From an uncultured Alphaproteobacteria bacterium (GTDB taxonomy: Bacteria > Pseudomonadota > Alphaproteobacteria > HIMB59 > GCA-002718135): a DNA stretch of 64,000 nt. The notes under the pieces were generated by a model. It was given only the letters and a program-made list of their open reading frames with translations. It ran no database searches and had not been told where the DNA came from. The DNA lies in NCBI GenBank assembly GCA_902602515.1, contig CACKRG010000005.1:1245-65244 (forward strand), given 5' to 3'. Position numbers and translations under genes: made by a program. Below, piece after piece: positions 16,231 through 25,354 of this stretch. The number at the start of each line of letters is the position of its first letter. Within the stretch, counting starts at the first letter, position 1.

Positions 16231-17058
16231 ATGGAGTTAACACTCCTTGGAACTGGTTGTCCCAAAGTTGATTTTAAAAGGTTTGGACCCTCTAATTTAA
16301 TTCAAACTAAAAAAACAAAAATATTAGTTGATTGTGGTTCTGGAGTAACTCAAAGATTAGATCAAATTAAAATCTCATCTGCTGATATTGATGCATTGTT
16401 TTTAACTCATTTACATTCAGATCACGTAATAGATTTTTATCAGCTAATTATATCATCTTGGCATTCTTATAGAATAAAACCTTGGAAAATCTATGGCCCA
16501 ATAGGAACAAAAAAATTTGTTTCAAAAATTATGGATGCTTGGAAAGAGGAGAGAGATTTGAGAATAAAATATGAATCCAGAGCATCAGCTAAAGCATTTA
16601 AAATTATTGTTCAAGAATTTAAAGCTCATGGTAAAATTAAAATCAACGACTTTAATGTTGAATATTTTGAAGTTGATCACAAACCAGTAAAGTATGCCTA
16701 TGGTTTTAATTTTTTCAATAAAAATAAAAAGCTTACTATTAGTGGAGACACAAGACCATGTGAAAATTTAATGCGGTATGCACAACAAGCTGACGTCTTA
16801 CTACATGAAGTTTTTATAGATGGGGAGTTTAAGCAAACTACTAAAATGAGAACTAAAAAAACATTGCATAATGTTAGAAGCTATCATACACCATCTTCGA
16901 TTGTCGGAAAAGTTGCTCTAATAACAAAATGTAAAAAATTAGTATTAACTCATTTAGTTCCAACTAAATTTAATGAAGATAATCTCAAAAGAACTGTAAA
17001 GAAAGATTTTGGGAAAAATCCTGTTATAGGTAAAGATCTATTAAAAATAAGGATATGA
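16231..17058 (+). CDS. MBL-fold metallo-hydrolase (RNase Z/BN-like)
   Basis: 275 aa with the HxHxDH motif (THLHSDHV) and distal His/Asp residues. The ATG directly abuts the rpoD stop. Confidence 0.75.
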   Translation: MELTLLGTGCPKVDFKRFGPSNLIQTKKTKILVDCGSGVTQRLDQIKISSADIDALFLTHLHSDHVIDFYQLIISSWHSYRIKPWKIYGPIGTKKFVSKIMDAWKEERDLRIKYESRASAKAFKIIVQEFKAHGKIKINDFNVEYFEVDHKPVKYAYGFNFFNKNKKLTISGDTRPCENLMRYAQQADVLLHEVFIDGEFKQTTKMRTKKTLHNVRSYHTPSSIVGKVALITKCKKLVLTHLVPTKFNEDNLKRTVKKDFGKNPVIGKDLLKIRI

Positions 17059-17106
17059 TATAATTTGATTGAAAGTTATAAATTTGAAATGTATTAGCAC
17101 ATTTTA

Positions 17107-17183
17107 GGGCTCTTAGCTCAGTTGGTTAGAGCGCCCCGCTCATAACGGGGTGGTCCGGGGTTCAAGTCCCTGAGGGCCCACCA
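17107..17183 (+). tRNA. tRNA with CAT anticodon (elongator Met, or Ile2 if lysidine-modified)
   Basis: Hand fold: acceptor GGGCTCT/AGGGCCC, anticodon stem CCCCG/CGGGG with loop CTCATAA, T arm CCGGGGTTCAAGTCCCTGA.., CCA encoded. The first pair is G-C, so it is not an initiator. Confidence 0.88.
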
Positions 17184-17214
17184 AATTTCCTAAAAATTAC
17201 TAAAATTAGGTGTT

Positions 17215-17220
17215 TATAAT
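17215..17220 (+). promoter_or_regulatory. possible -10 hexamer (TATAAT) for the transporter operon
   Basis: A perfect TATAAT lies 47 nt upstream of the preferred ATG (17267). No convincing -35 is visible. It falls inside the ORF-track N-terminal extension, which argues against the 17210 start. Confidence 0.3.
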
Positions 17221-17266
17221 GTACCTCGATATGCTACTAAAACATATTAATTTTTTGGGAGGAAAA

Positions 17267-18487
17267 ATGAAAAAATTATTAACTTTAGTAATTTTATTTA
17301 CCTCAACTATAGTTTCTGCAGGCACGCTGGTTGTTAACTCTAACCAATCTGGAGAACCTTCTAAATCTGCTTTTGATGCATATGTAGCTGCATTCAGTGA
17401 AGCTCATCCAGAAGTAACAGTTGTTGTAAATGAATTTGAACATGAAGCATATAAAACTGCTATTAGAAACTTTTTGACTGCTGAAGCACCAGATGTTGCA
17501 ATTTGGTTTGCTGGTAACAGAATGAAGTTTTTTGTTGATCAAAATTTATTTCAAGATGTAAGTGATGTATGGGCAGATGCCGATCTTAATGACTCAATGG
17601 CTTCTAGCAAAGGCTCTCTTACAGTTGATGGTAAACAATATGGTGTTCCATGGGGTTACTATCAATGGGGTGTATATTACAGAAAAGATTTATTTGACCA
17701 ACTTGGTTTAAATGTTCCACGTGACTGGGATGAATTTAAATGGGTTTGTGCTATGCTTAAGAAGAATGGAATTACTCCAATCACTATTGGTACTAAGTTT
17801 TTATGGACCGCTGGTGGATGGTTTGATTATCTAAATCTTAGAATTAATGGTTATCAATTTCACATGGATTTAACAGCAGGTAAAGTAAGCTACGAAGATC
17901 CAAGACTTGATGCTGTATTTGATCATTGGAGAGAATTAATTGATCCAGGATATTTCCTTGAGGATCATGCTTCTTTCTCATGGCAGGATGCACAAGCTCC
18001 ACAAATCAATGGTGAAGCAGCAATGTATTTAATTGGTAATTTTTATGTACCAACTTTTGAAGCAGCAGGTATTGGTGATCAAATGGATTTCTTCCAATTC
18101 CCTACAATCTATGAGGGCGTAGGTGTTGCTGAAGATGCTCCAACTGATACAATGCATATTCCTAGTGGCGCTAAAAATGTTGAGGATGCAAAAAAATTCT
18201 TAGCATTTATGTCAAACAAAGAAGCTGCTACTAATTGGGCTAAAATGGGCGGTATGCTAAGTCCAAATAAATATGCTGATAAACCAACAAATAGATTCTC
18301 AATAATGGGGGCTAAGATGCTCGCAGCTGCAGATGATATTGCACAATTCTGGGATAGAGACGCTAACCCGGATATGGCTGGTGCAGCAATGGAAGGTTTC
18401 CAAGAATTTATGGTTAAGCCTGACCGTGAAGACAAAATTAGAGCACGTCTCGAAAAAGAGAGAGCTAGAATTCACGGAGCTTTATAA
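17267..18487 (+). CDS. ABC transporter substrate-binding protein, family 1 (CUT1 sugar type)
   Basis: Start moved to MKKLLTLVILFTSTIVSAG, a signal peptide preceded by the GGGAGG Shine-Dalgarno at 17257-17262. Overall it looks like an extracellular solute-binding family 1 protein. Confidence 0.88.
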   Translation: MKKLLTLVILFTSTIVSAGTLVVNSNQSGEPSKSAFDAYVAAFSEAHPEVTVVVNEFEHEAYKTAIRNFLTAEAPDVAIWFAGNRMKFFVDQNLFQDVSDVWADADLNDSMASSKGSLTVDGKQYGVPWGYYQWGVYYRKDLFDQLGLNVPRDWDEFKWVCAMLKKNGITPITIGTKFLWTAGGWFDYLNLRINGYQFHMDLTAGKVSYEDPRLDAVFDHWRELIDPGYFLEDHASFSWQDAQAPQINGEAAMYLIGNFYVPTFEAAGIGDQMDFFQFPTIYEGVGVAEDAPTDTMHIPSGAKNVEDAKKFLAFMSNKEAATNWAKMGGMLSPNKYADKPTNRFSIMGAKMLAAADDIAQFWDRDANPDMAGAAMEGFQEFMVKPDREDKIRARLEKERARIHGAL

Positions 18488-18501
18488 TTTTAATCTTAAA
18501 T

Positions 18502-18530
18502 AGGGGTGTAATTTTACACCTCTATTCTTT
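18502..18530 (+). terminator. intra-operon hairpin and T-rich tail after the binding-protein gene
   Basis: AGGGGTGT-aatttt-ACACCTCT forms 8 bp with one G-U, followed by ATTCTTTTATT. It lies 15 nt after the stop codon. Confidence 0.5.
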
Positions 18531-18582
18531 TATTATTCAAATTAAATATTATAAATAAAATTATAGAGAGATATTATATTAA

Positions 18583-19497
18583 ATGACTTTTTGGGAGCGT
18601 AATCAGTTAAAATTAGCACCCTTCATTTTTCTTGCTCCAGCAATTCTTGTTTTTCTAATATATGTAATCTATCCTATTTTTGACTCGATATGGGTGAGTT
18701 TCCATGAATGGAATGGAATGGATAAAAGTGGAATAAGAGGTAATGGAAAACCAAACTGGGAGTTTGTTGGTTTTAAAAATTATATTACCTTATTTACAGA
18801 TGATGATGAATTTTATGTTTCTCTATTTAATAATATCAGATGGTTAATCTTTAGCTTATTAGCTGTTCCAATTGGATTAGCTTTAGCTCTTTTTGTTAAC
18901 CAAAAAATTTTAGGTATCAGATATATAAAATCATTATTTTATTTCCCCTTTGTTATAAATGCCGTTGTTATAGGGGTAATATTTACGTGGTTTTACAATC
19001 CCAAATACGGTGCCTTAAGTCTTGTGCTAGGTTTTTTTGGTTTAGATCCTATCCCAATGTTAGCAGATGAAAATTTAGCAACATATGGAATTATTATAGC
19101 ATCATTTTTCCCAGGTATAGCGTACACAATGATATTGTATATTACTGGATTGACAGGTGTAAGTAGAGAAATGATTGAAGCTGGAAGGATAGATGGGGCA
19201 TCTGGATTTACAATGTTATGGCATGTTGTTTTACCTCAATTGAGACCAGCAACACTCATTGCTGTAGTTGTGACATTAGTTGGTGCACTTAGAGCATTTG
19301 ACTTAATAGCAGTTATGACAGCTGGAGGCCCATGGGGCAGTTCTGAAGTTTTGGCTTATAAAATGTATCAAGAGGCATTATTTAATTTTAGAATGGGTTA
19401 TGGAGCTGCGATTGCCACTATTCTTTTCCTAATCATGGATATTTACATCGCTTGGTTTTTATATCGTTTATTTAAGAACGAAAGGTCTGAAAAATAA
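18583..19497 (+). CDS. sugar ABC transporter permease (MalF/UgpA-like)
   Basis: 304 aa with six hydrophobic segments and an EAA loop (EAGRIDGASGFTMLWHVVLPQLRP). Confidence 0.9.
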   Translation: MTFWERNQLKLAPFIFLAPAILVFLIYVIYPIFDSIWVSFHEWNGMDKSGIRGNGKPNWEFVGFKNYITLFTDDDEFYVSLFNNIRWLIFSLLAVPIGLALALFVNQKILGIRYIKSLFYFPFVINAVVIGVIFTWFYNPKYGALSLVLGFFGLDPIPMLADENLATYGIIIASFFPGIAYTMILYITGLTGVSREMIEAGRIDGASGFTMLWHVVLPQLRPATLIAVVVTLVGALRAFDLIAVMTAGGPWGSSEVLAYKMYQEALFNFRMGYGAAIATILFLIMDIYIAWFLYRLFKNERSEK

Positions 19498-20348
19498 TGT
19501 TTCCAACTCCAATTCAAAATTATTCTTTAAAAATAAATATTGGTTACAGGGTTTTACTTGTTTTCACACTTATAATTTGGTTGTTACCACTGATAGCTGT
19601 TATGCTTACTTCAATTAGAACCTTTGATGACGTTCTTGCAGGTAATTATTGGACATTTCCAGAAGAAACAGCTCTAGTCTCTAATTATGTTGCGGTATTT
19701 GCAGATGGAAAAATGGCAGGTTTTTTTCTTAATAGTCTAATCATTACTATTCCAACAGTAATAGGCACACTATTTTTAAGTTCTCTAGCAGGTTATTCTC
19801 TTGCAATGCATAGATTTAAATTAAATTTATTAGTATTTGCGATGTTCATAGCAGGAAATTTTGTTCCATATCAAATATTAATGATACCGGTACGTAATAT
19901 ATCAATTGAATTAGGTATGTATAATAGTCATTTAGGATTAATTATTTTTCATATTGCTTTTCAAACTGGTTTTTGTACTTTTTTTCTAAGAAACTTTATT
20001 AAAGAATTACCATTTGAGCTTATTGAAGCAGCTAGGGCTGATGGTGCAACTGAATGGACGATATATAGAAAAATAATAATTCCACTTACAATACCCGCAC
20101 TTGCAGCACTCGGTGTTTTAGAGTTTACTTTTATATGGAATGATTATTTTTGGGCATTAATTTTAACACAAGGTGATACTGTTAAACCAATTACAGTTGG
20201 TTTAGATGTTTTAAGAGGTCAATGGACAACAGCTTGGAATTTAGTTTCAGCAGGATCTGTTGTGGCAGCCTTACCACCAGTAATAATGTTTTTTATTTTA
20301 CAAAGACAATTTATTCACGGATTAACGTTTGGAGCAGTTAAAGGATAA
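19497..20348 (+). CDS. sugar ABC transporter permease (MalG/UgpE-like)
   Basis: 283 aa with an EAA loop (EAARADGATEWTIYRKIIIPLTIPA). The ATG overlaps the upstream stop (TAATG). Confidence 0.9.
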   Translation: MFPTPIQNYSLKINIGYRVLLVFTLIIWLLPLIAVMLTSIRTFDDVLAGNYWTFPEETALVSNYVAVFADGKMAGFFLNSLIITIPTVIGTLFLSSLAGYSLAMHRFKLNLLVFAMFIAGNFVPYQILMIPVRNISIELGMYNSHLGLIIFHIAFQTGFCTFFLRNFIKELPFELIEAARADGATEWTIYRKIIIPLTIPALAALGVLEFTFIWNDYFWALILTQGDTVKPITVGLDVLRGQWTTAWNLVSAGSVVAALPPVIMFFILQRQFIHGLTFGAVKG

Positions 20349-20385
20349 TGTTTGCAAATAAGATAGTAAAATATAAAAGACATTC

Positions 20386-21450
20386 ATGCCTTTAATATCA
20401 CTTAGACAACTTTTAGACCACGCAGCTGAAAACAACTACGGAGTTCCTGCATTTAATGTTAACAATTTAGAGCAAATTAGAGCAATTATGGAAGGTGCGG
20501 AAGATCTTAACAGCCCAGTTATAATTCAGGCATCTAAATCAGCTAGAAAATATGCTGGTCCTATATTTTTGAAAAATATGGTGCAAGCAGCTACGGAAGA
20601 ATTTTCAAATATTCCTGTTGTTCTTCATCAAGATCATGGTGGCTCACCTGAGGATTGTAAAAGTTGTATTGAATTAGGTTTTACTTCAGTAATGATGGAT
20701 GGCTCATTAAGAGAGGATCAAAAAACACCCTCTGATTTTAAGTATAATGTTGAAGTAACAAAAAAAACTGTTGATATGGCTCATTATTTAGGGGTTTCTG
20801 TAGAAGGTGAATTAGGTTGTCTTGGATCACTTGAAACAGGAACTGGCGAAAAAGAAGATGGTGTTGGTGCAGAAGGCATATTAACTCAAGACCAATTACT
20901 AACTGATCCTGATGAAGCTTCAACGTTTGTCAGTCAAACAAAAGTAGATGCTCTTGCAATTGCAATTGGAACAAGTCACGGAGCATATAAATTTTCTAAA
21001 CCACCCACCGGCGAAACACTTGCTATGGAAAGAATAAGACAAATTCATTCCAAAATACCAAATACTCACTTAGTTATGCATGGATCTTCTAGTGTACCCA
21101 AAAACTTAATTGCTGATATAAACAAATATGGCGGAGAAATAAAAGAGACCTATGGTGTACCGCTTGAGGAAATTAAAGAAGGAATTAAAAATGGAGTTAG
21201 AAAGGTAAACGTGGACACTGACTTAAGATTAGCATCAACTGCTGCAATAAGAAAATATTTTTTTGAAAATCCATCTGAGTTTGATCCTAGAAAATACCTT
21301 TCACTCTCAAAAGATGCAATGAAAGAAGTTGTTAAAAATAAATTAGAGGAATTTGGAGCTGCTGGAAATGCATCAAAAATAAAACCTTCATCATTATCAA
21401 TTATGGCCTCCAGGTATCAATCTGGAGAGTTGAGTTCGATAATAAATTAA
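20386..21450 (+). CDS. fba: class II fructose/ketose-bisphosphate aldolase
   Basis: 354 aa. The N-terminus [25 protein letters not shown], the HQDHG metal site and GTSHGAYKF are typical of the class II (FbaA/CbbA-type) family. Confidence 0.9.
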
Positions 21451-22488
21451 ATGAATAAAATACGTTGGGGTATAATTGGTCCAGGTTCAATTGCAAACAA
21501 TTTTGCAGACGCTCTCTTACAAACATATTCTGCAGAGTTAACTGCAGTTGCAAGTTTTAATGATGAAAGAAGAAAAGTTTTTGGAGATAAATATAATATT
21601 TCAAACAATCTAAGATTCGAAAACTATGATTCATTATTAAATTGTGAATTAGTTGATGCTGTTTACATATCAACACCACATACACTTCATGCTGACTTAT
21701 CAATTAAAGCGGCCGGAAAAGGTAAGCATATTCTGTGTGAAAAACCAGCTGCAGTAAACTTTAAACAAGGGGAGAAAGTAATAAAAGCAGTTCAGGATGC
21801 AGGTGTTTTTTATAAAGAGGGATTTATGTACAGATGCCATCCTCAAATCCCAGCTTTATTAGAATTATTAAAAAATAAGACTATAGGTGATGTAACTAAA
21901 ATTATATCTTCTTTTGGTTTTGATATGACCAAAGTAATACCTGAACATAGACTTTTTAATAAAAATTTAGCAGGTGGAGCTATTTTGGATGTTGGTTTAT
22001 ATCCTGTTTCACTTTCTAGAATGATCGCAGGAGTACAATCAGGTAGAAAATTTGTGAATCCAATTAAATTATCAGCTGAAGCACAAATCGGACAAACAGG
22101 TGTAGATGAAATATCATCAGCTATAATGGAATTTGATAATGGAATAACAGCTAAAGCAGATACAGCAATTATGAAAAATATGGATAACAACGCAATTATT
22201 GAAGGTTCAGATGGTAAAATTATTATTGATAATCCATGGATGCCAGGAAGAGATGGCGGTCCATATCATTCCAATATAAGAATAATAAAAAATGGTCATG
22301 AAGAAATTAGAGAATTTAAAGGACCAGAGCATCTATTTTTTTTTGAAGCCGAGCTTTCTAGCCAATCAATTTTAAAAGAAAAACAGCAGGTACCACACCC
22401 AGGAATGACATGGGAAGATACACTTGGCAATCTAAAAGTTTTAGATCAATGGAGACAAAAAATTAATTACAAACTAAATGAAGATTAA
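21451..22488 (+). CDS. Gfo/Idh/MocA-family NAD(P)-dependent oxidoreductase
   Basis: 345 aa with an N-terminal Rossmann motif (WGIIGPGSIA) and the EKP motif (LCEKPAA). The start abuts the fba stop. Confidence 0.85.
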   Translation: MNKIRWGIIGPGSIANNFADALLQTYSAELTAVASFNDERRKVFGDKYNISNNLRFENYDSLLNCELVDAVYISTPHTLHADLSIKAAGKGKHILCEKPAAVNFKQGEKVIKAVQDAGVFYKEGFMYRCHPQIPALLELLKNKTIGDVTKIISSFGFDMTKVIPEHRLFNKNLAGGAILDVGLYPVSLSRMIAGVQSGRKFVNPIKLSAEAQIGQTGVDEISSAIMEFDNGITAKADTAIMKNMDNNAIIEGSDGKIIIDNPWMPGRDGGPYHSNIRIIKNGHEEIREFKGPEHLFFFEAELSSQSILKEKQQVPHPGMTWEDTLGNLKVLDQWRQKINYKLNED

Positions 22489-22490
22489 TT

Positions 22491-23456
22491 ATGCAATATG
22501 ATAACATAAATGGTTTAGAAAAAAGTATATCAAAACTTATTATGGGTAATGATAACCAAACTGATTATGATGAAGCTGCTAAATTATGGGATCACTGGGT
22601 AGAGGTAGGAGGAAATGCATTTGATAATGCGCATATTTATGGTGGAGGCTCTATGGAGACCCTCTTGGGGAAATGGCATAAATCAAGAAATAATTTAAAC
22701 GATCTTGTAATAATTGCAAAAGGAGCACATACACCAAATTGCAATCCACAAAGTATCACAATACAACTTAGTGAGTCATTGGATAGACTAAAATGTGAAA
22801 GTGCTGATATTTATATAATGCACAGAGACAATACCGAGATCCCTGTTAGTGAGTTTATTGATGTTTTGAATGAAGAAAAACAAAAAGGAAGAATAAAGAT
22901 ATTTGGTGCTTCAAACTGGACTTTACAACGCTTTCAAGAAGCTAATGAGTGGGCAAAAAAAAATAATAAATTTGGTTTTAGTATTTTAAATAATAATTTA
23001 GCACTTTGTAAAATGATTAAACCTCTTTGGTCAGGATGTATTTCATCAAATAACAAAAAAATTTTAGACTACCTTGAAAGTACAAATACAGCACACCTAT
23101 CATGGTCGAGTCAAGGCAGGGGTTATTTTCTTCCTGATCAAATTACAAAAAAAATTGAAGATCAGATTACTAAGGATGAAACTTGGAGAAAACAAGGAGA
23201 GCACTCCAGTGGACCTCTTAGTTGCTTCGAAAGTGAAGATAATCGTGAAAGAAAAAAAAGAGCTAAATCACTCGCAATAAAAAAGAATACAACTGCACAG
23301 AATATTGCAGGAGCATGGCCAATAAATTTAAATTTTCCATCATTTGCCTTAATCGGCCCACGTAAAATTCAAGAAATAGATTCTAGTTTAAACAATTTGA
23401 AAATTAATTTAAGTAGTGAAGAAATTAATTGGTTAAATCTGATGGAGAAATTTTAA
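22491..23456 (+). CDS. aldo/keto reductase family oxidoreductase
   Basis: 321 aa with an AKR-like N-terminal block (GGNAFDNAHIYGGGSMETLLGKW) and IFGASNW. Confidence 0.75.
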   Translation: MQYDNINGLEKSISKLIMGNDNQTDYDEAAKLWDHWVEVGGNAFDNAHIYGGGSMETLLGKWHKSRNNLNDLVIIAKGAHTPNCNPQSITIQLSESLDRLKCESADIYIMHRDNTEIPVSEFIDVLNEEKQKGRIKIFGASNWTLQRFQEANEWAKKNNKFGFSILNNNLALCKMIKPLWSGCISSNNKKILDYLESTNTAHLSWSSQGRGYFLPDQITKKIEDQITKDETWRKQGEHSSGPLSCFESEDNRERKKRAKSLAIKKNTTAQNIAGAWPINLNFPSFALIGPRKIQEIDSSLNNLKINLSSEEINWLNLMEKF

Positions 23457-23457
23457 C

Positions 23458-24228
23458 ATGAATAAGGTTGATATTTCATTTCAACTATATACTGCAAGAA
23501 AATTTGAACCTTATAAAAATGTATTAGAGTATATTACATCAACAGGAATTAAAAATGTAGAATTATTTGCATTATCAGATTTTGATGAAAAGGAATTACA
23601 TGATTTACTACAACAAAATAATTTAACAGCATTATCTGCTCATATAAGTTTTGAAAGTTTTGAAAATCTAAAGGATACTATAAAAAAAATTAAATATTTA
23701 AATATTAGACATGCAATAATACCTGCTCCGAAAGCAATACCAAGTAAAGATTTTCAGGAATCTTTTAATTTAAATGAAAGTGAATGGGTACAATTTGGCA
23801 AAGAAATTTCAGAGTATATTAAAATTTTTCAGGATCAAGGCTTAACACTTGGTTATCATAATCATTCATTTGAATTTTTGAAGCTTCCTAATGGAAAATA
23901 TCCAATGGAATTAATTTTAGATCAAGACGAAAATTTAAAATTTGAAATTGATTTAGGATGGACAACTGCTGGTAAAACTAATCCTATTGATTGGATTGAT
24001 AAATATAAAAATCGAATCATTGCTTGTCATTTAAAAGATTTTTATTCTAATAAGGACATGCTTAATCATTCAAATCAATGTCCAATTGGAGAGGGGTTTA
24101 TTAATTGGAAAGAATTATTAAGTAAAATATCAGATACACCTTGTGAAGTTATTGCAATAGAGCACGATGACCCAAATGATTATAAAGAATATATTAATAA
24201 ATCACTAAAATATTTAACTAAAATTTAA
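23458..24228 (+). CDS. sugar phosphate isomerase/epimerase (xylose-isomerase-like TIM barrel)
   Basis: 256 aa with family-typical blocks (GYHNHSFEF, EIDLGW, HLKDF, IEHDD). Confidence 0.8.
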   Translation: MNKVDISFQLYTARKFEPYKNVLEYITSTGIKNVELFALSDFDEKELHDLLQQNNLTALSAHISFESFENLKDTIKKIKYLNIRHAIIPAPKAIPSKDFQESFNLNESEWVQFGKEISEYIKIFQDQGLTLGYHNHSFEFLKLPNGKYPMELILDQDENLKFEIDLGWTTAGKTNPIDWIDKYKNRIIACHLKDFYSNKDMLNHSNQCPIGEGFINWKELLSKISDTPCEVIAIEHDDPNDYKEYINKSLKYLTKI

Positions 24229-24229
24229 A

Positions 24230-25354
24230 ATGAATATTGGTATAATTGGATGTGGAAATATCTCTGATACATATTTTGATTCCCAGCAAATTTTCAATAA
24301 TATTAATATAATAGGATGTTCTGACATATTACAAGGTTTAGCTGATAGCAAAGCAGAAAAATATCAAATAAAGTCTTATTCTGTAGAAGGTTTACTAAAG
24401 AATAAAAATATAGATATTATACTTAATTTAACAACTCCAAATGTTCATAAAGATATTATTATTAAATCGCTTAAAAATGGGAAACATTGTTTTAGTGAAA
24501 AACCTCTAGCAACTAATTTTATGGATGGATTAGAAATAGAAGAAACTGCAAAAATAAATAATTTACAAGTCGGTTGTGCACCTGATACATTTTTAGGAGC
24601 TGCAGGTCAAAAGGCAAGATCTTTAATTGAAAATCAAGAAATAGGTAAAGTTGTATTAGGAACATTCAATATTATGTCTCATGGTATGGAAGACTGGCAT
24701 CCAAACCCCGAATTTTTCTTTAAACCAGGTGCAGGCCCAGTTTTTGATCTAGGCGTATATTATTTAACTCAATTAATTAATCTTAATGGCCCAATTAGAA
24801 GTGTAACTGCTTCTAGTTCTACTGTTCAACAAAAAAGAATTATATCAAGCAAGCCGAGATTTGGAGATAAAATAACTGTAGAAACTCCTACAACTTTAAT
24901 GGGAATATTAGAGTTTCATAATGAAGCAAAAATACAATTTAATTGTTCATGGGATATTTGGAAACACTCTCATACGAATATGGAACTGTATGGTTTAGAT
25001 GGATCTATGATAATACCTGACCCAAATTTCTTTAGTGGTAGTATTTTAGTTTCAAATAAAAATAATAAATGGAAGGACGTGAATAATGATGGAATGCTCT
25101 TAGGTATACCCAATACTACTGATAATAATGGAAAAAAAATAGCTAATTATAGAGGTATAGGCTTATCAGATATGATTAATTCTATTTTAAAAAATAAAAA
25201 ACCAAGATGTTCATTAGACCTTTCACTTCATGTATTGGAAGTAATGGAAAGCATAATTACTTCATCAGAAAAAGAAAATAAAATTTATTTAAAGACTAAA
25301 CCTCAAAAACCTGAAATTTTAACTGAAAGCGAAATTAGCTTATTAAAAATTTAA
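24230..25354 (+). CDS. Gfo/Idh/MocA-family oxidoreductase (second copy)
   Basis: 374 aa with IGIIGCGNIS and FSEKPLA motifs. It is the last gene of the tightly packed operon. Confidence 0.85.
   Translation: MNIGIIGCGNISDTYFDSQQIFNNINIIGCSDILQGLADSKAEKYQIKSYSVEGLLKNKNIDIILNLTTPNVHKDIIIKSLKNGKHCFSEKPLATNFMDGLEIEETAKINNLQVGCAPDTFLGAAGQKARSLIENQEIGKVVLGTFNIMSHGMEDWHPNPEFFFKPGAGPVFDLGVYYLTQLINLNGPIRSVTASSSTVQQKRIISSKPRFGDKITVETPTTLMGILEFHNEAKIQFNCSWDIWKHSHTNMELYGLDGSMIIPDPNFFSGSILVSNKNNKWKDVNNDGMLLGIPNTTDNNGKKIANYRGIGLSDMINSILKNKKPRCSLDLSLHVLEVMESIITSSEKENKIYLKTKPQKPEILTESEISLLKI

Follow-up and report, generated by a model that had tools for sequence, protein, structure and literature searches.

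A putative route for non-hydrolytic glycoside cleavage encoded in a carbohydrate hot spot of an HIMB59/AEGEAN-169 genome

Certain soil and gut bacteria are known, from work of 2020–2024, to open glycosides through successive oxidation, beta-elimination, hydration and reduction. In the published routes, the lyase has to be followed by a hydratase, namely, AtHYD in Agrobacterium (PMC10628242) and LgdB2 in Bacillus smithii (PMC7676230). The Agrobacterium lyase AtOGE coordinates Mn2+ through H132, D163, H189 and E233 and employs H134 as the catalytic base, and its H134A and H189A variants are inactive (Bitter et al., PMC10628242). Here, we analyse a 64,000-nt stretch of DNA (hereafter, the window) from a marine alphaproteobacterium of the HIMB59/AEGEAN-169 lineage, abundant in the open ocean, with the focus on four consecutive genes, gfo1, akr, tim and gfo2, which encode two Gfo/Idh/MocA oxidoreductases (Gfo1 and Gfo2), an aldo/keto reductase (AKR) and a xylose-isomerase-like TIM barrel (Tim). 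On balance, and judging from sequence, we favour the view that these genes specify a cytoplasmic route for glycoside cleavage that does not involve hydrolysis. The chemistry itself is known; the locus would extend it to a new host of ecological importance, with an unlinked hydratase, an added AKR and an architecture based on cassette swapping. Among the papers covered by a literature search, none links SAR11 or AEGEAN-169 to 3-keto-glycoside lyases.

Gene families were called by profile searches with Pfam and NCBIfam, and the tRNA gene was identified with ARAGORN. The assembly of the source genome is 86% complete. For comparison, we used a family sample of 116 species genomes from eight genera, including 105 genomes of the same genus (completeness mostly 55–90%), and mapped the window proteins, along with extra proteins of the relatives, onto 72 related loci. 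The four genes, in window coordinates, are:

21451..22488, + strand: Gfo/Idh/MocA oxidoreductase 1 (gfo1), putative NADP(H)-dependent keto-sugar reductase (PF01408, PF22725)
22491..23456, + strand: aldo/keto reductase (akr) (PF00248/Aldo_ket_red, 1.4e-40)
23458..24228, + strand: xylose-isomerase-like TIM barrel (tim), putative Mn2+-dependent 3-keto-glycoside 1,2-lyase (AP_endonuc_2; 256 aa)
24230..25354, + strand: Gfo/Idh/MocA oxidoreductase 2 (gfo2), long subfamily, putative NAD+-dependent pyranoside 3-dehydrogenase (PF22725, PF01408, PF02894)

The TIM barrel, its oxidoreductase partners and the hydratase

Among the PDB entries, Tim is most similar in sequence to 8BVK, the O-glycoside beta-eliminase AtOGE of A. 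tumefaciens (96 bits, E 2e-26, residues 5–254), followed by 8TCS, 8TCD and 8TCT. A Foldseek search with the predicted model of Tim (pLDDT 92.6) placed AtOGE at ranks 1 and 2 and the uncharacterised structure 3OBE at rank 3, followed by the AL1 (Alistipes) and BT1 (B. thetaiotaomicron) lyases, both of which are within the top ten and are labelled '3-keto-beta-glucopyranoside-1,2-lyases' in their PDB titles. IolE (rank 12), AtHYD (rank 24), the ketose 3-epimerases (rank 35 or lower) and YcjR (rank 39) are found further down. With 256 aa, Tim falls within the size range of the lyase class, the members of which consist of ~255–290 aa and have no lid domain. Furthermore, H134, H136, E163, D165, H191 and E235 of Tim align with H132, H134, E161, D163, H189 and E233 of AtOGE, respectively, and these six residues, together with E35 and H62, are invariant in ten Tim orthologues; the second-shell residue Asn52 is not conserved. 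No other AtOGE homologue is encoded in the source genome. Taken together, the sequence and the predicted model suggest that Tim is most likely an AtOGE-type metal-dependent 3-keto-glycoside lyase. The Tim family is abundant in ocean metagenomes, where it forms clusters with hundreds of members, and a search of a large protein database with this family returned no functional names, just 'sugar phosphate isomerase/epimerase' or 'hypothetical'.

There is no hydratase gene within the locus. A close orthologue of AtHYD (2-hydroxy-3-keto-glucal hydratase; 8RO4, 533 bits, E 3e-159) is encoded on another contig of the source genome (C1:285704–286759), within a second sugar island (C1:276.7–296 kb) that also includes two Gfo genes, three other TIM barrels, DhaK/DhaL, a PfkB kinase, two SDRs, a CUT1 importer and two MalK-type ATPases. 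Among the TIM barrels beside the hydratase, one is of the ketose-3-epimerase type and one has no solved relatives. In the family sample, the hydratase is confined to genera g1, g4 and g6, the same three genera that carry tim-gfo2. The presence of an AtHYD orthologue implies that some glucal-producing lyase should exist, and Tim is the only candidate of a known type. We regard this as the strongest, albeit indirect, support for the assignment of Tim as a putative lyase.

Among solved structures, Gfo1 has its nearest relatives in dimeric dihydrodiol dehydrogenase and in a sugar 3-ketoreductase (3RBV/3RC1), which we take to be KijD10. Gfo1 shares with these proteins the catalytic lysine of the EKP motif, the catalytic tyrosine of the D-x-G-x-Y-P motif and 'AVAS' at the end of strand beta-2, the latter pointing to a putative enzyme of the NADP type. 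For Gfo2, the top PDB sequence match is DgpA1, and the nearest folds are those of scyllo-inositol/L-glucose dehydrogenase, levoglucosan dehydrogenase and DgpA1. The EKP motif, D173/Y177 (D-x-x-x-Y) and D32 are invariant in Gfo2, and the position of this Asp at the end of strand beta-2 is suggestive of an NAD-type enzyme. The nearest solved relatives of AKR, both weak, are DepB and IolS. Inspection of the N-termini revealed a signal peptide in none of the four enzymes.

From these similarities, we infer the following assignment of catalytic roles, cofactors and coupling in trans. A small sugar would be imported into the cytoplasm by the transporter encoded upstream (cassette A, see below), whereupon Gfo2 would oxidise C3 of the glycosyl ring with NAD+. 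Tim would then abstract the C2 proton and expel the aglycone, yielding 2-hydroxy-3-keto-glucal, which the AtHYD orthologue, provided in trans from contig C1, would hydrate to a 3-keto-sugar. Finally, Gfo1 and/or AKR, both putative NADPH-type reductases, would reduce the 3-keto-sugar to a free hexose destined for glycolysis. The aldolase gene fba that precedes gfo1 would be co-transcribed with the four genes owing to its long residence at the site. The original prediction, which was made from the window sequence, had proposed uptake and 3-keto-type processing, by oxidation, elimination and reduction, of a glycoside, an anhydrosugar or a cyclitol. The glycoside variant is the best supported, through the proximity of Tim to AtOGE, AL1 and BT1, the retained residues and the AtHYD orthologue, whereas the cyclitol variant has become weak, as discussed below. 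The sister loci, where tim-gfo2 is surrounded by a LacI repressor, a complete CUT1 importer and a GH1 beta-glucosidase, likewise point to glycosides.

Several observations weigh against a glycoside-cleaving pathway. Tim is ~27% identical to AtOGE, with all roles resting on homology. An E/D/H/E metal site is found throughout the xylose-isomerase-like superfamily, and the pointers specific to a lyase are the H-x-H motif and the ranking of the matches only. Gfo2 scores 20–57 bits against the curated models of the 3-dehydrogenase (BT_2158/BT_2159), levoglucosan dehydrogenase and IolG, the cut-offs of which are 355–750, and its fold neighbours do not discriminate between substrates. In the A. tumefaciens operon, the Gfo enzyme is a reductase rather than an oxidase, so that Gfo1 and Gfo2 might act the other way round, and the role of AKR within the pathway is a guess. 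The hydratase is unlinked; its co-occurrence with tim-gfo2 amounts to three versus five genera, which are not phylogenetically independent; and one genome of the same genus, G094, keeps the AtHYD orthologue without tim-gfo2. Moreover, AtOGE, AL1 and BT1 prefer beta-glucosides whereas cassette A looks galactose/alpha-galactoside-like, so the cleavage module and the importer may be unrelated neighbours.

Some of the same observations are compatible with interconversion of free monosaccharides or keto-sugars, for instance, of galactose or a guloside-type sugar to glucose or fructose, with Gfo2 oxidising C3 of a hexose or a glycoside, Tim serving as an epimerase or isomerase in the manner of YcjR or the ketose 3-epimerases, and Gfo1 and AKR as reductases. 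In Escherichia coli YcjQRS, the same families perform oxidation, epimerisation and reduction beside a CUT1 importer, and DepB, the closest solved relative of AKR, is presumably a 3-keto reductase acting in an epimerisation. Besides, the importer looks galactose-like, and gfo1-akr is kept without tim-gfo2 in G094, so the reductases appear to have a function of their own. However, BLASTP detects no sequence similarity between Tim and YcjR (E 0.82), which, together with the low fold rank of the latter, led us to reject a YcjR-type epimerase as its identity; the ketose 3-epimerases also rank low, and a separate TIM barrel of the epimerase type is encoded on contig C1. Furthermore, galK is present in the genome, so that a galactose by-pass would be needless, and the AtHYD orthologue calls for a glucal-forming lyase, for which Tim is the sole candidate. 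We thus consider this alternative unlikely.

Conversion of cyclitols (myo-, scyllo-, D-chiro- or methylated inositols), with Gfo1 and Gfo2 as dehydrogenases and Tim as an IolE/IolI-like enzyme feeding iolD, iolB, iolC and iolJ located elsewhere, appears very improbable. IolG is indeed among the best NCBIfam matches of both Gfo proteins, and IolE is the best one of Tim, but the scores (IolG, 95 bits for Gfo1 and 57 for Gfo2 versus a cut-off of 355; IolE, 46.6 bits for Tim versus 290) fall short of the curated cut-offs by factors of 4 to 7. The top fold match of Gfo2 is scyllo-inositol dehydrogenase, and IolS is among the relatives of AKR; yet both sequence and fold place Tim nearer to AtOGE, AL1 and BT1 than to IolE or IolI, and the neighbours in the sister loci are glycosidases and CUT1 importers rather than iol genes. 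The source genome encodes IolD, IolC, IolB-like, IolJ-like and IolG proteins, which would be in place to receive the products, and neither its assembly nor that of a close relative, G047, contains an IolE above the cut-off. However, the IolG (380 bits) is bona fide and located elsewhere, as are IolD and IolC, which also score above their cut-offs, and in 30 of 37 genus genomes, a bona fide IolE (~378 bits) is encoded elsewhere, alongside a tim orthologue. Given this coexistence with a dedicated IolE, we ruled out IolE as the identity of Tim. The inositol genes are scattered in the source genome (C1:36513–37499, C1:342751–344574 and C6:46995–49656; IolG, 380 bits; IolD, 763 bits; IolC, 304 bits; IolB-like; IolJ-like).

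The least probable substrate, with very slight chances in our estimate, is an anhydrosugar such as levoglucosan, 1,5-anhydro-fructose or 1,5-anhydro-glucitol, which would be processed by the same chemistry, applied to an intramolecular glycosidic bond, in the manner of LgdA/LgdB1/LgdB2/LgdC. Two Gfo enzymes and TIM barrels also operate in the Lgd pathway (PMC7676230), the folds nearest to Gfo2 include that of levoglucosan dehydrogenase, and Gfo1 counts 1,5-anhydro-fructose reductase among its relatives. By contrast, the scores against the levoglucosan dehydrogenase model NF052479 (64.9 bits for Gfo1 and 54.1 for Gfo2) are far from its cut-off of 650, the nearest characterised relatives of Tim are O-glycoside lyases, and the sister loci carry genes of the glycoside type (beta-glucosidase, alpha-galactosidase, LacI).

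A fixed backbone and exchangeable cassettes

Upstream of gfo1, the block contains the following features:

17107..17183, + strand: tRNA-Met(CAT), identified with ARAGORN; marker of the upstream side of the carbohydrate hot spot
17267..18487, + strand: CUT1 (family 1) periplasmic sugar-binding protein of cassette A (PF01547/SBP_bac_1, 1.1e-38; ORF open from 17210)
18499..18526, + strand: 12-bp hairpin with T-rich tail, between the binding-protein and permease genes
18583..19497, + strand: ABC permease 1, MalF/UgpA type (PF00528/BPD_transp_1; best NCBIfam matches UgpA and GlcT, both below cut-off)
19497..20348, + strand: ABC permease 2, MalG/UgpE/GlcU type (PF00528; GlcU 153 bits, below cut-off)
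20386..21450, + strand: class II fructose-1,6-bisphosphate aldolase (fba) (TIGR01521 equivalog)

The tRNA gene and the eight open reading frames (ORFs) on the same strand lie exactly where the original prediction had placed them, and each of its family calls is upheld by Pfam and NCBIfam. From the aldolase onward, the intergenic spacers are 0, 2, 1 and 1 nt, as it had noted, and the block indeed contains no gene for an ABC ATPase, a kinase or a regulator. The block is flanked by dnaG-rpoD-rnz upstream and by an mlaC-like gene, mlaA and uvrD/pcrA downstream; its G+C content is slightly elevated (0.32–0.35 across 17–23 kb versus ~0.25–0.30 in the flanks). The mlaC-like gene is convergent with gfo2, and the two share 4 nt at their 3′ ends (25351–25354), leaving no space for a terminator between them. 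Rather than a single pathway, the block comprises three modules, namely, importer cassette A, fba, and the gfo1-akr and tim-gfo2 pairs.

Across the related loci, the interval between rnz/tRNA-Met and mlaC forms a hot spot for carbohydrate genes, with cassettes exchanged around a constant backbone. In the genus, this backbone consists of tRNA-Met, fba, gfo1-akr and tim-gfo2. The gene tim is followed by gfo2 in 72/72 loci, and akr always follows gfo1. In 21 loci, akr is immediately 5′ of tim; 45 loci carry a whole importer between the two genes, in which a binding protein and two permeases are joined by a MalK-type ATPase and, in many cases, by a LacI repressor. In ten loci, a GH1 beta-glucosidase gene (TIGR03356, 537 bits) is located 3′ of gfo2. 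In G094 (locus L118, G094:C2:104001–124000), cassette A, fba and gfo1-akr directly abut mlaC, and tim-gfo2 is cleanly absent. A genome of genus g7 has only the GH1 gene and fba at the site, and one of genus g2 has the importer alone. The tRNA-Met gene is found at the equivalent site in G094, G114 and G001.

An orthologue of tim was detected in ~75 of the 105 genus genomes, a fraction that is roughly what the completeness of these genomes would predict, so that the backbone appears to be near-core. Consistently, six of the seven fairly complete genomes without tim also lack mlaA, meaning that the region is merely unassembled there. Beyond the genus, two more genera carry the backbone, whereas five of the eight genera of the family do not. 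Thus, the cluster is not the accessory block that had been anticipated: the backbone is near-core in the genus, although absent from five sister genera, and it is the importer cassettes that vary.

Nucleotide identity to the sister species is 76–80% in the flanks. Within the locus, it reaches 92–95% with G097 over positions 17000–22900, 96–98% with G047 over 21000–23000, and 88–96% with G015 and G102 over 17000–20500. The locus is a mosaic of recent inter-species recombination tracts, shaped by both cassette exchange and homologous recombination; importer plug-ins around a fixed backbone, in tracts of 90–98% identity against the 76–80% background, amount to a clear case of gene-specific exchange among species, here in a streamlined genome. 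When window positions 17000–24500 are compared with loci L017, L018, L020 and L031, the breakpoints differ between the partner species. A tRNA-targeted integrative island was ruled out: no second copy of the 3′-terminal 25 nt of the tRNA (with up to 3 mismatches) was found in the window, and there is no integrase among the genes. The tRNA gene is a landmark.

The hot spot varies in other respects as well. A PhyH-family gene (Fe/2-oxoglutarate dioxygenase-like) recurs beside Gfo genes (L031, 12370–13203; source genome, C4:16443–17273 and C1:330004–330852); many sister loci have it inserted between fba and gfo1, and on C1 it adjoins the Gfo2 paralogue. In genomes that carry another importer cassette, cassette C (loci L114, L116 and L117), the hot spot reaches upstream of tRNA-Met, where a distant second GH4 gene (33% identical) and two further ABC ATPase genes (27–34% identical to the MalK-type query) are located. 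Hence, the variable region is larger than the block in the window.

The tim-gfo2 pair recurs well outside the family. In Sinorhizobium meliloti, adjacent homologues of tim (33%) and gfo2 (45%) follow a LacI-regulated CUT1 importer and precede an AKR gene, with the ORFs between the ATPase and the TIM barrel showing no family matches, and in a Trueperaceae genome, a Gfo2 homologue (35%) is encoded directly beside a TIM barrel. This recurrence indicates that tim-gfo2 is an old functional unit. The most sceptical explanation of the locus is that the hot spot merely gathers unrelated carbohydrate genes and that the tight spacing reflects genome streamlining. Spacers of 0–2 nt are usual in streamlined genomes, fba is clearly a housekeeping gene, cassettes separate akr from tim in 45 loci, and gfo1-akr occurs apart from tim-gfo2 in G094. 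Nevertheless, tim-gfo2 and gfo1-akr are each an invariant pair, both pairs stay at the site across ~75 species of the genus despite heavy recombination, and the families exactly match the published four-step pathways. We find it quite improbable that the locus harbours no functional unit, although we accept that fba is a mere neighbour, and the importer may be one as well.

Importer cassette A and the aldolase

The most likely start of the binding protein is ATG 17267 rather than GTG 17210, the mechanical start of the ORF: this ATG follows a Shine-Dalgarno sequence, GGGAGG, and is the first codon of a typical signal peptide (MKKLLTLVILFTSTIVSA). A perfect TATAAT is found at ~17214–17219, between tRNA-Met and this ATG; a promoter scan showed no excess of sites over shuffled sequence. 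The hairpin downstream of the binding-protein gene is a terminator-like site (RNA fold centroid −15.2 kcal/mol, z-score −2.27) and probably serves to end transcription in part or to stabilise the mRNA. With a binding protein and both MalF/MalG-type permeases, cassette A has the composition of a CUT1 importer, the ATPase of which is encoded outside the locus.

The closest solved relative of the binding protein is AcbH of Actinoplanes (196 bits), which we take to be a galactose-specific binding protein. Cassette A was found in 17 loci, and in 11 of these, it adjoins a gene for a GH4 alpha-galactosidase (NF011657, 590 bits); in the source genome, the GH4 gene resides on contig C14, not at this locus. 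A galK gene is present elsewhere in this genome (261 bits, above cut-off). The kinship with AcbH, the recurrent GH4 neighbour and the presence of galK suggest that the cargo of cassette A is most likely galactose or an alpha-galactoside. A transporter of the raffinose/stachyose/melibiose type has been reported in the HIMB59/AEGEAN-169 clade (Getz et al., PMC10308909) and may be cassette A.

None of the 17 cassette A loci contains a MalK-type gene. The original prediction had suggested that the importer borrows its ATPase, which is consistent with the presence elsewhere in the source genome of at least four MalK-type ATPases, recognised by OB_MalK matches; genes of this type lie at C1:355192, C8:40270, C2:223279, C1:288465 and C1:293384. 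All of these genes sit within or beside other transporter clusters, and no orphan ATPase was identified in this genome; any of the ATPases listed could power cassette A as a shared MalK/MsiK-type subunit. The ATPase on contig C8, a candidate for such sharing, lies ~8 kb from the nearest CUT1 permeases and follows a ThuA-like and ThuB-like (Gfo) gene pair (C8:38401–41376). The ThuA/ThuB-like identities were assigned by eye from the sequence, NCBIfam giving no match for ThuA. ThuB is a Gfo-type enzyme that makes 3-keto-disaccharides in rhizobia, and the pair on C8 is a possible source of such compounds.

The product of fba matches TIGR01521 (type B) with 584.4 bits against a cut-off of 496, across positions 1–347 of the 347-position model, and is the sole equivalog-level fructose-1,6-bisphosphate aldolase found in the source assembly. 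The other class II aldolase of this genome is 30% identical to it and probably is IolJ because its gene adjoins iolC, the product of which scores 304 bits and exceeds its cut-off, as well as an iolB-like gene. The fba gene occupies the same site in genus g7, which lacks the oxidoreductases. The aldolase had been regarded as part of the sugar module; the equivalog score and the presence of fba in genomes devoid of the oxidoreductases speak against this view. It is a housekeeping glycolytic/gluconeogenic aldolase and a long-term resident of the site rather than a pathway-specific enzyme. By the same score and synteny, a pathway-specific aldolase of the IolJ or tagatose type was ruled out.

Implications and comparison with known systems

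The nearest genomes come from single cells and metagenomes and carry the labels MarineAlpha5, HIMB59-LRMED and AG-337-I02. The source genome belongs to HIMB59/AEGEAN-169 and falls outside Pelagibacteraceae proper. This lineage, also known as SAR11 'subclade V', is metabolically distinct from SAR11, from which it is described as differing mainly in sugar use, with a wider range of sugar transport and utilisation (Getz et al., PMC10308909). The literature on the SAR11 'glycolysis operon', which had been invoked for comparison, concerns subclade Ia (PMC3448164) and is not directly applicable to this host; we dropped the parallel (Schwalbach 2010) for this reason.

HIMB59/AEGEAN-169 bacteria are widespread in oligotrophic surface oceans, and the picture of their sugar use rests on annotations of transporters and classical pathways. 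If the glycoside-cleaving route operates as proposed, glycosides would be split without glycoside hydrolases, the carbohydrate niche inferred from the genomes would change, and surveys that count only classical glycosidases would miss the route. It would also provide a concrete enzyme set of five small soluble proteins. Given that the same backbone adjoins different importer cassettes in sister species, the enzymes probably would form a broad-specificity cleavage module that serves several imported glycosides. A bolder version of this idea, which we offer tentatively and deem rather doubtful, is that the backbone and the unlinked hydratase make up a generic, hydrolase-free engine for opening glycosides that is re-targeted by swaps of importer cassettes between species. 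Under this scenario, a single enzyme set would give a streamlined oligotroph access to many small glycosides with alpha or beta linkages, for example, algal heterosides and fragments of laminarin or of the raffinose type, and surveys of glycoside hydrolase families would overlook much of the marine glycoside turnover.

Among the known systems, the ycjM-V cluster of E. coli (YcjS glucoside 3-dehydrogenase, YcjR 3-keto-glycoside 4-epimerase, YcjQ and the importer YcjNOP) shares with this locus the combination of a CUT1 importer, a Gfo enzyme, a TIM barrel and a second dehydrogenase; ycjV, the ATPase gene of the cluster, is a pseudogene in K-12. The two loci differ in that Tim lacks detectable similarity to YcjR in sequence, Gfo1 and Gfo2 are 23–25% identical to YcjS, and neither a phosphorylase nor a beta-phosphoglucomutase is encoded here. 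In Streptomyces and Thermus, shared ATPases of the MsiK type serve CUT1 importers; cassette A likewise has no ATPase of its own, and MalK-type ATPases are encoded elsewhere in the genome.

The AL1/BT1 lyases (8TCD, 8TCR, 8TCT) are the second-best characterised relatives of Tim, with 45 bits over the GYHNH...D..W...H.KD core, a sequence match that spans only ~70 residues, and TM scores of 0.77–0.79. In the 2024 study of Nasseri and colleagues on an 'alternative broad-specificity pathway for glycan breakdown', lyases of this type are reportedly paired with NAD-dependent Gfo-type oxidoreductases in modules that are interchangeable between organisms. In contrast to that setting, the host here is a streamlined marine alphaproteobacterium, and the locus is tied to ABC importers rather than being of the Bacteroidetes type. 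With the levoglucosan pathway of B. smithii (LgdA/LgdB1/LgdB2/LgdC; PMC7676230), the locus shares two Gfo enzymes, which act there as oxidase and reductase, as well as TIM barrels and a four-step logic of net hydrolysis, but it contains one TIM barrel, its Gfo proteins fall well short of the cut-off of the levoglucosan dehydrogenase model, and its neighbours are of the glycoside type.

The A. tumefaciens pathway, composed of GlycDH, AtOGE, AtHYD and a Gfo reductase (PMC10628242), differs in its first step: the FAD-dependent periplasmic GlycDH and its TAT partner are missing here, and oxidation would be cytoplasmic and performed by an NAD-type Gfo enzyme. Other differences are the location of the hydratase on another contig, the extra aldo/keto reductase and the divergence of Tim (~27% identity to AtOGE). 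In the remaining respects, the two systems are alike: Tim and AtOGE have the H-x-H, E-x-D, H and E residues of the active site in common, the genome encodes a close AtHYD orthologue and candidate Gfo reductases, and the proposed order of oxidation, beta-elimination, hydration and reduction follows the same logic.

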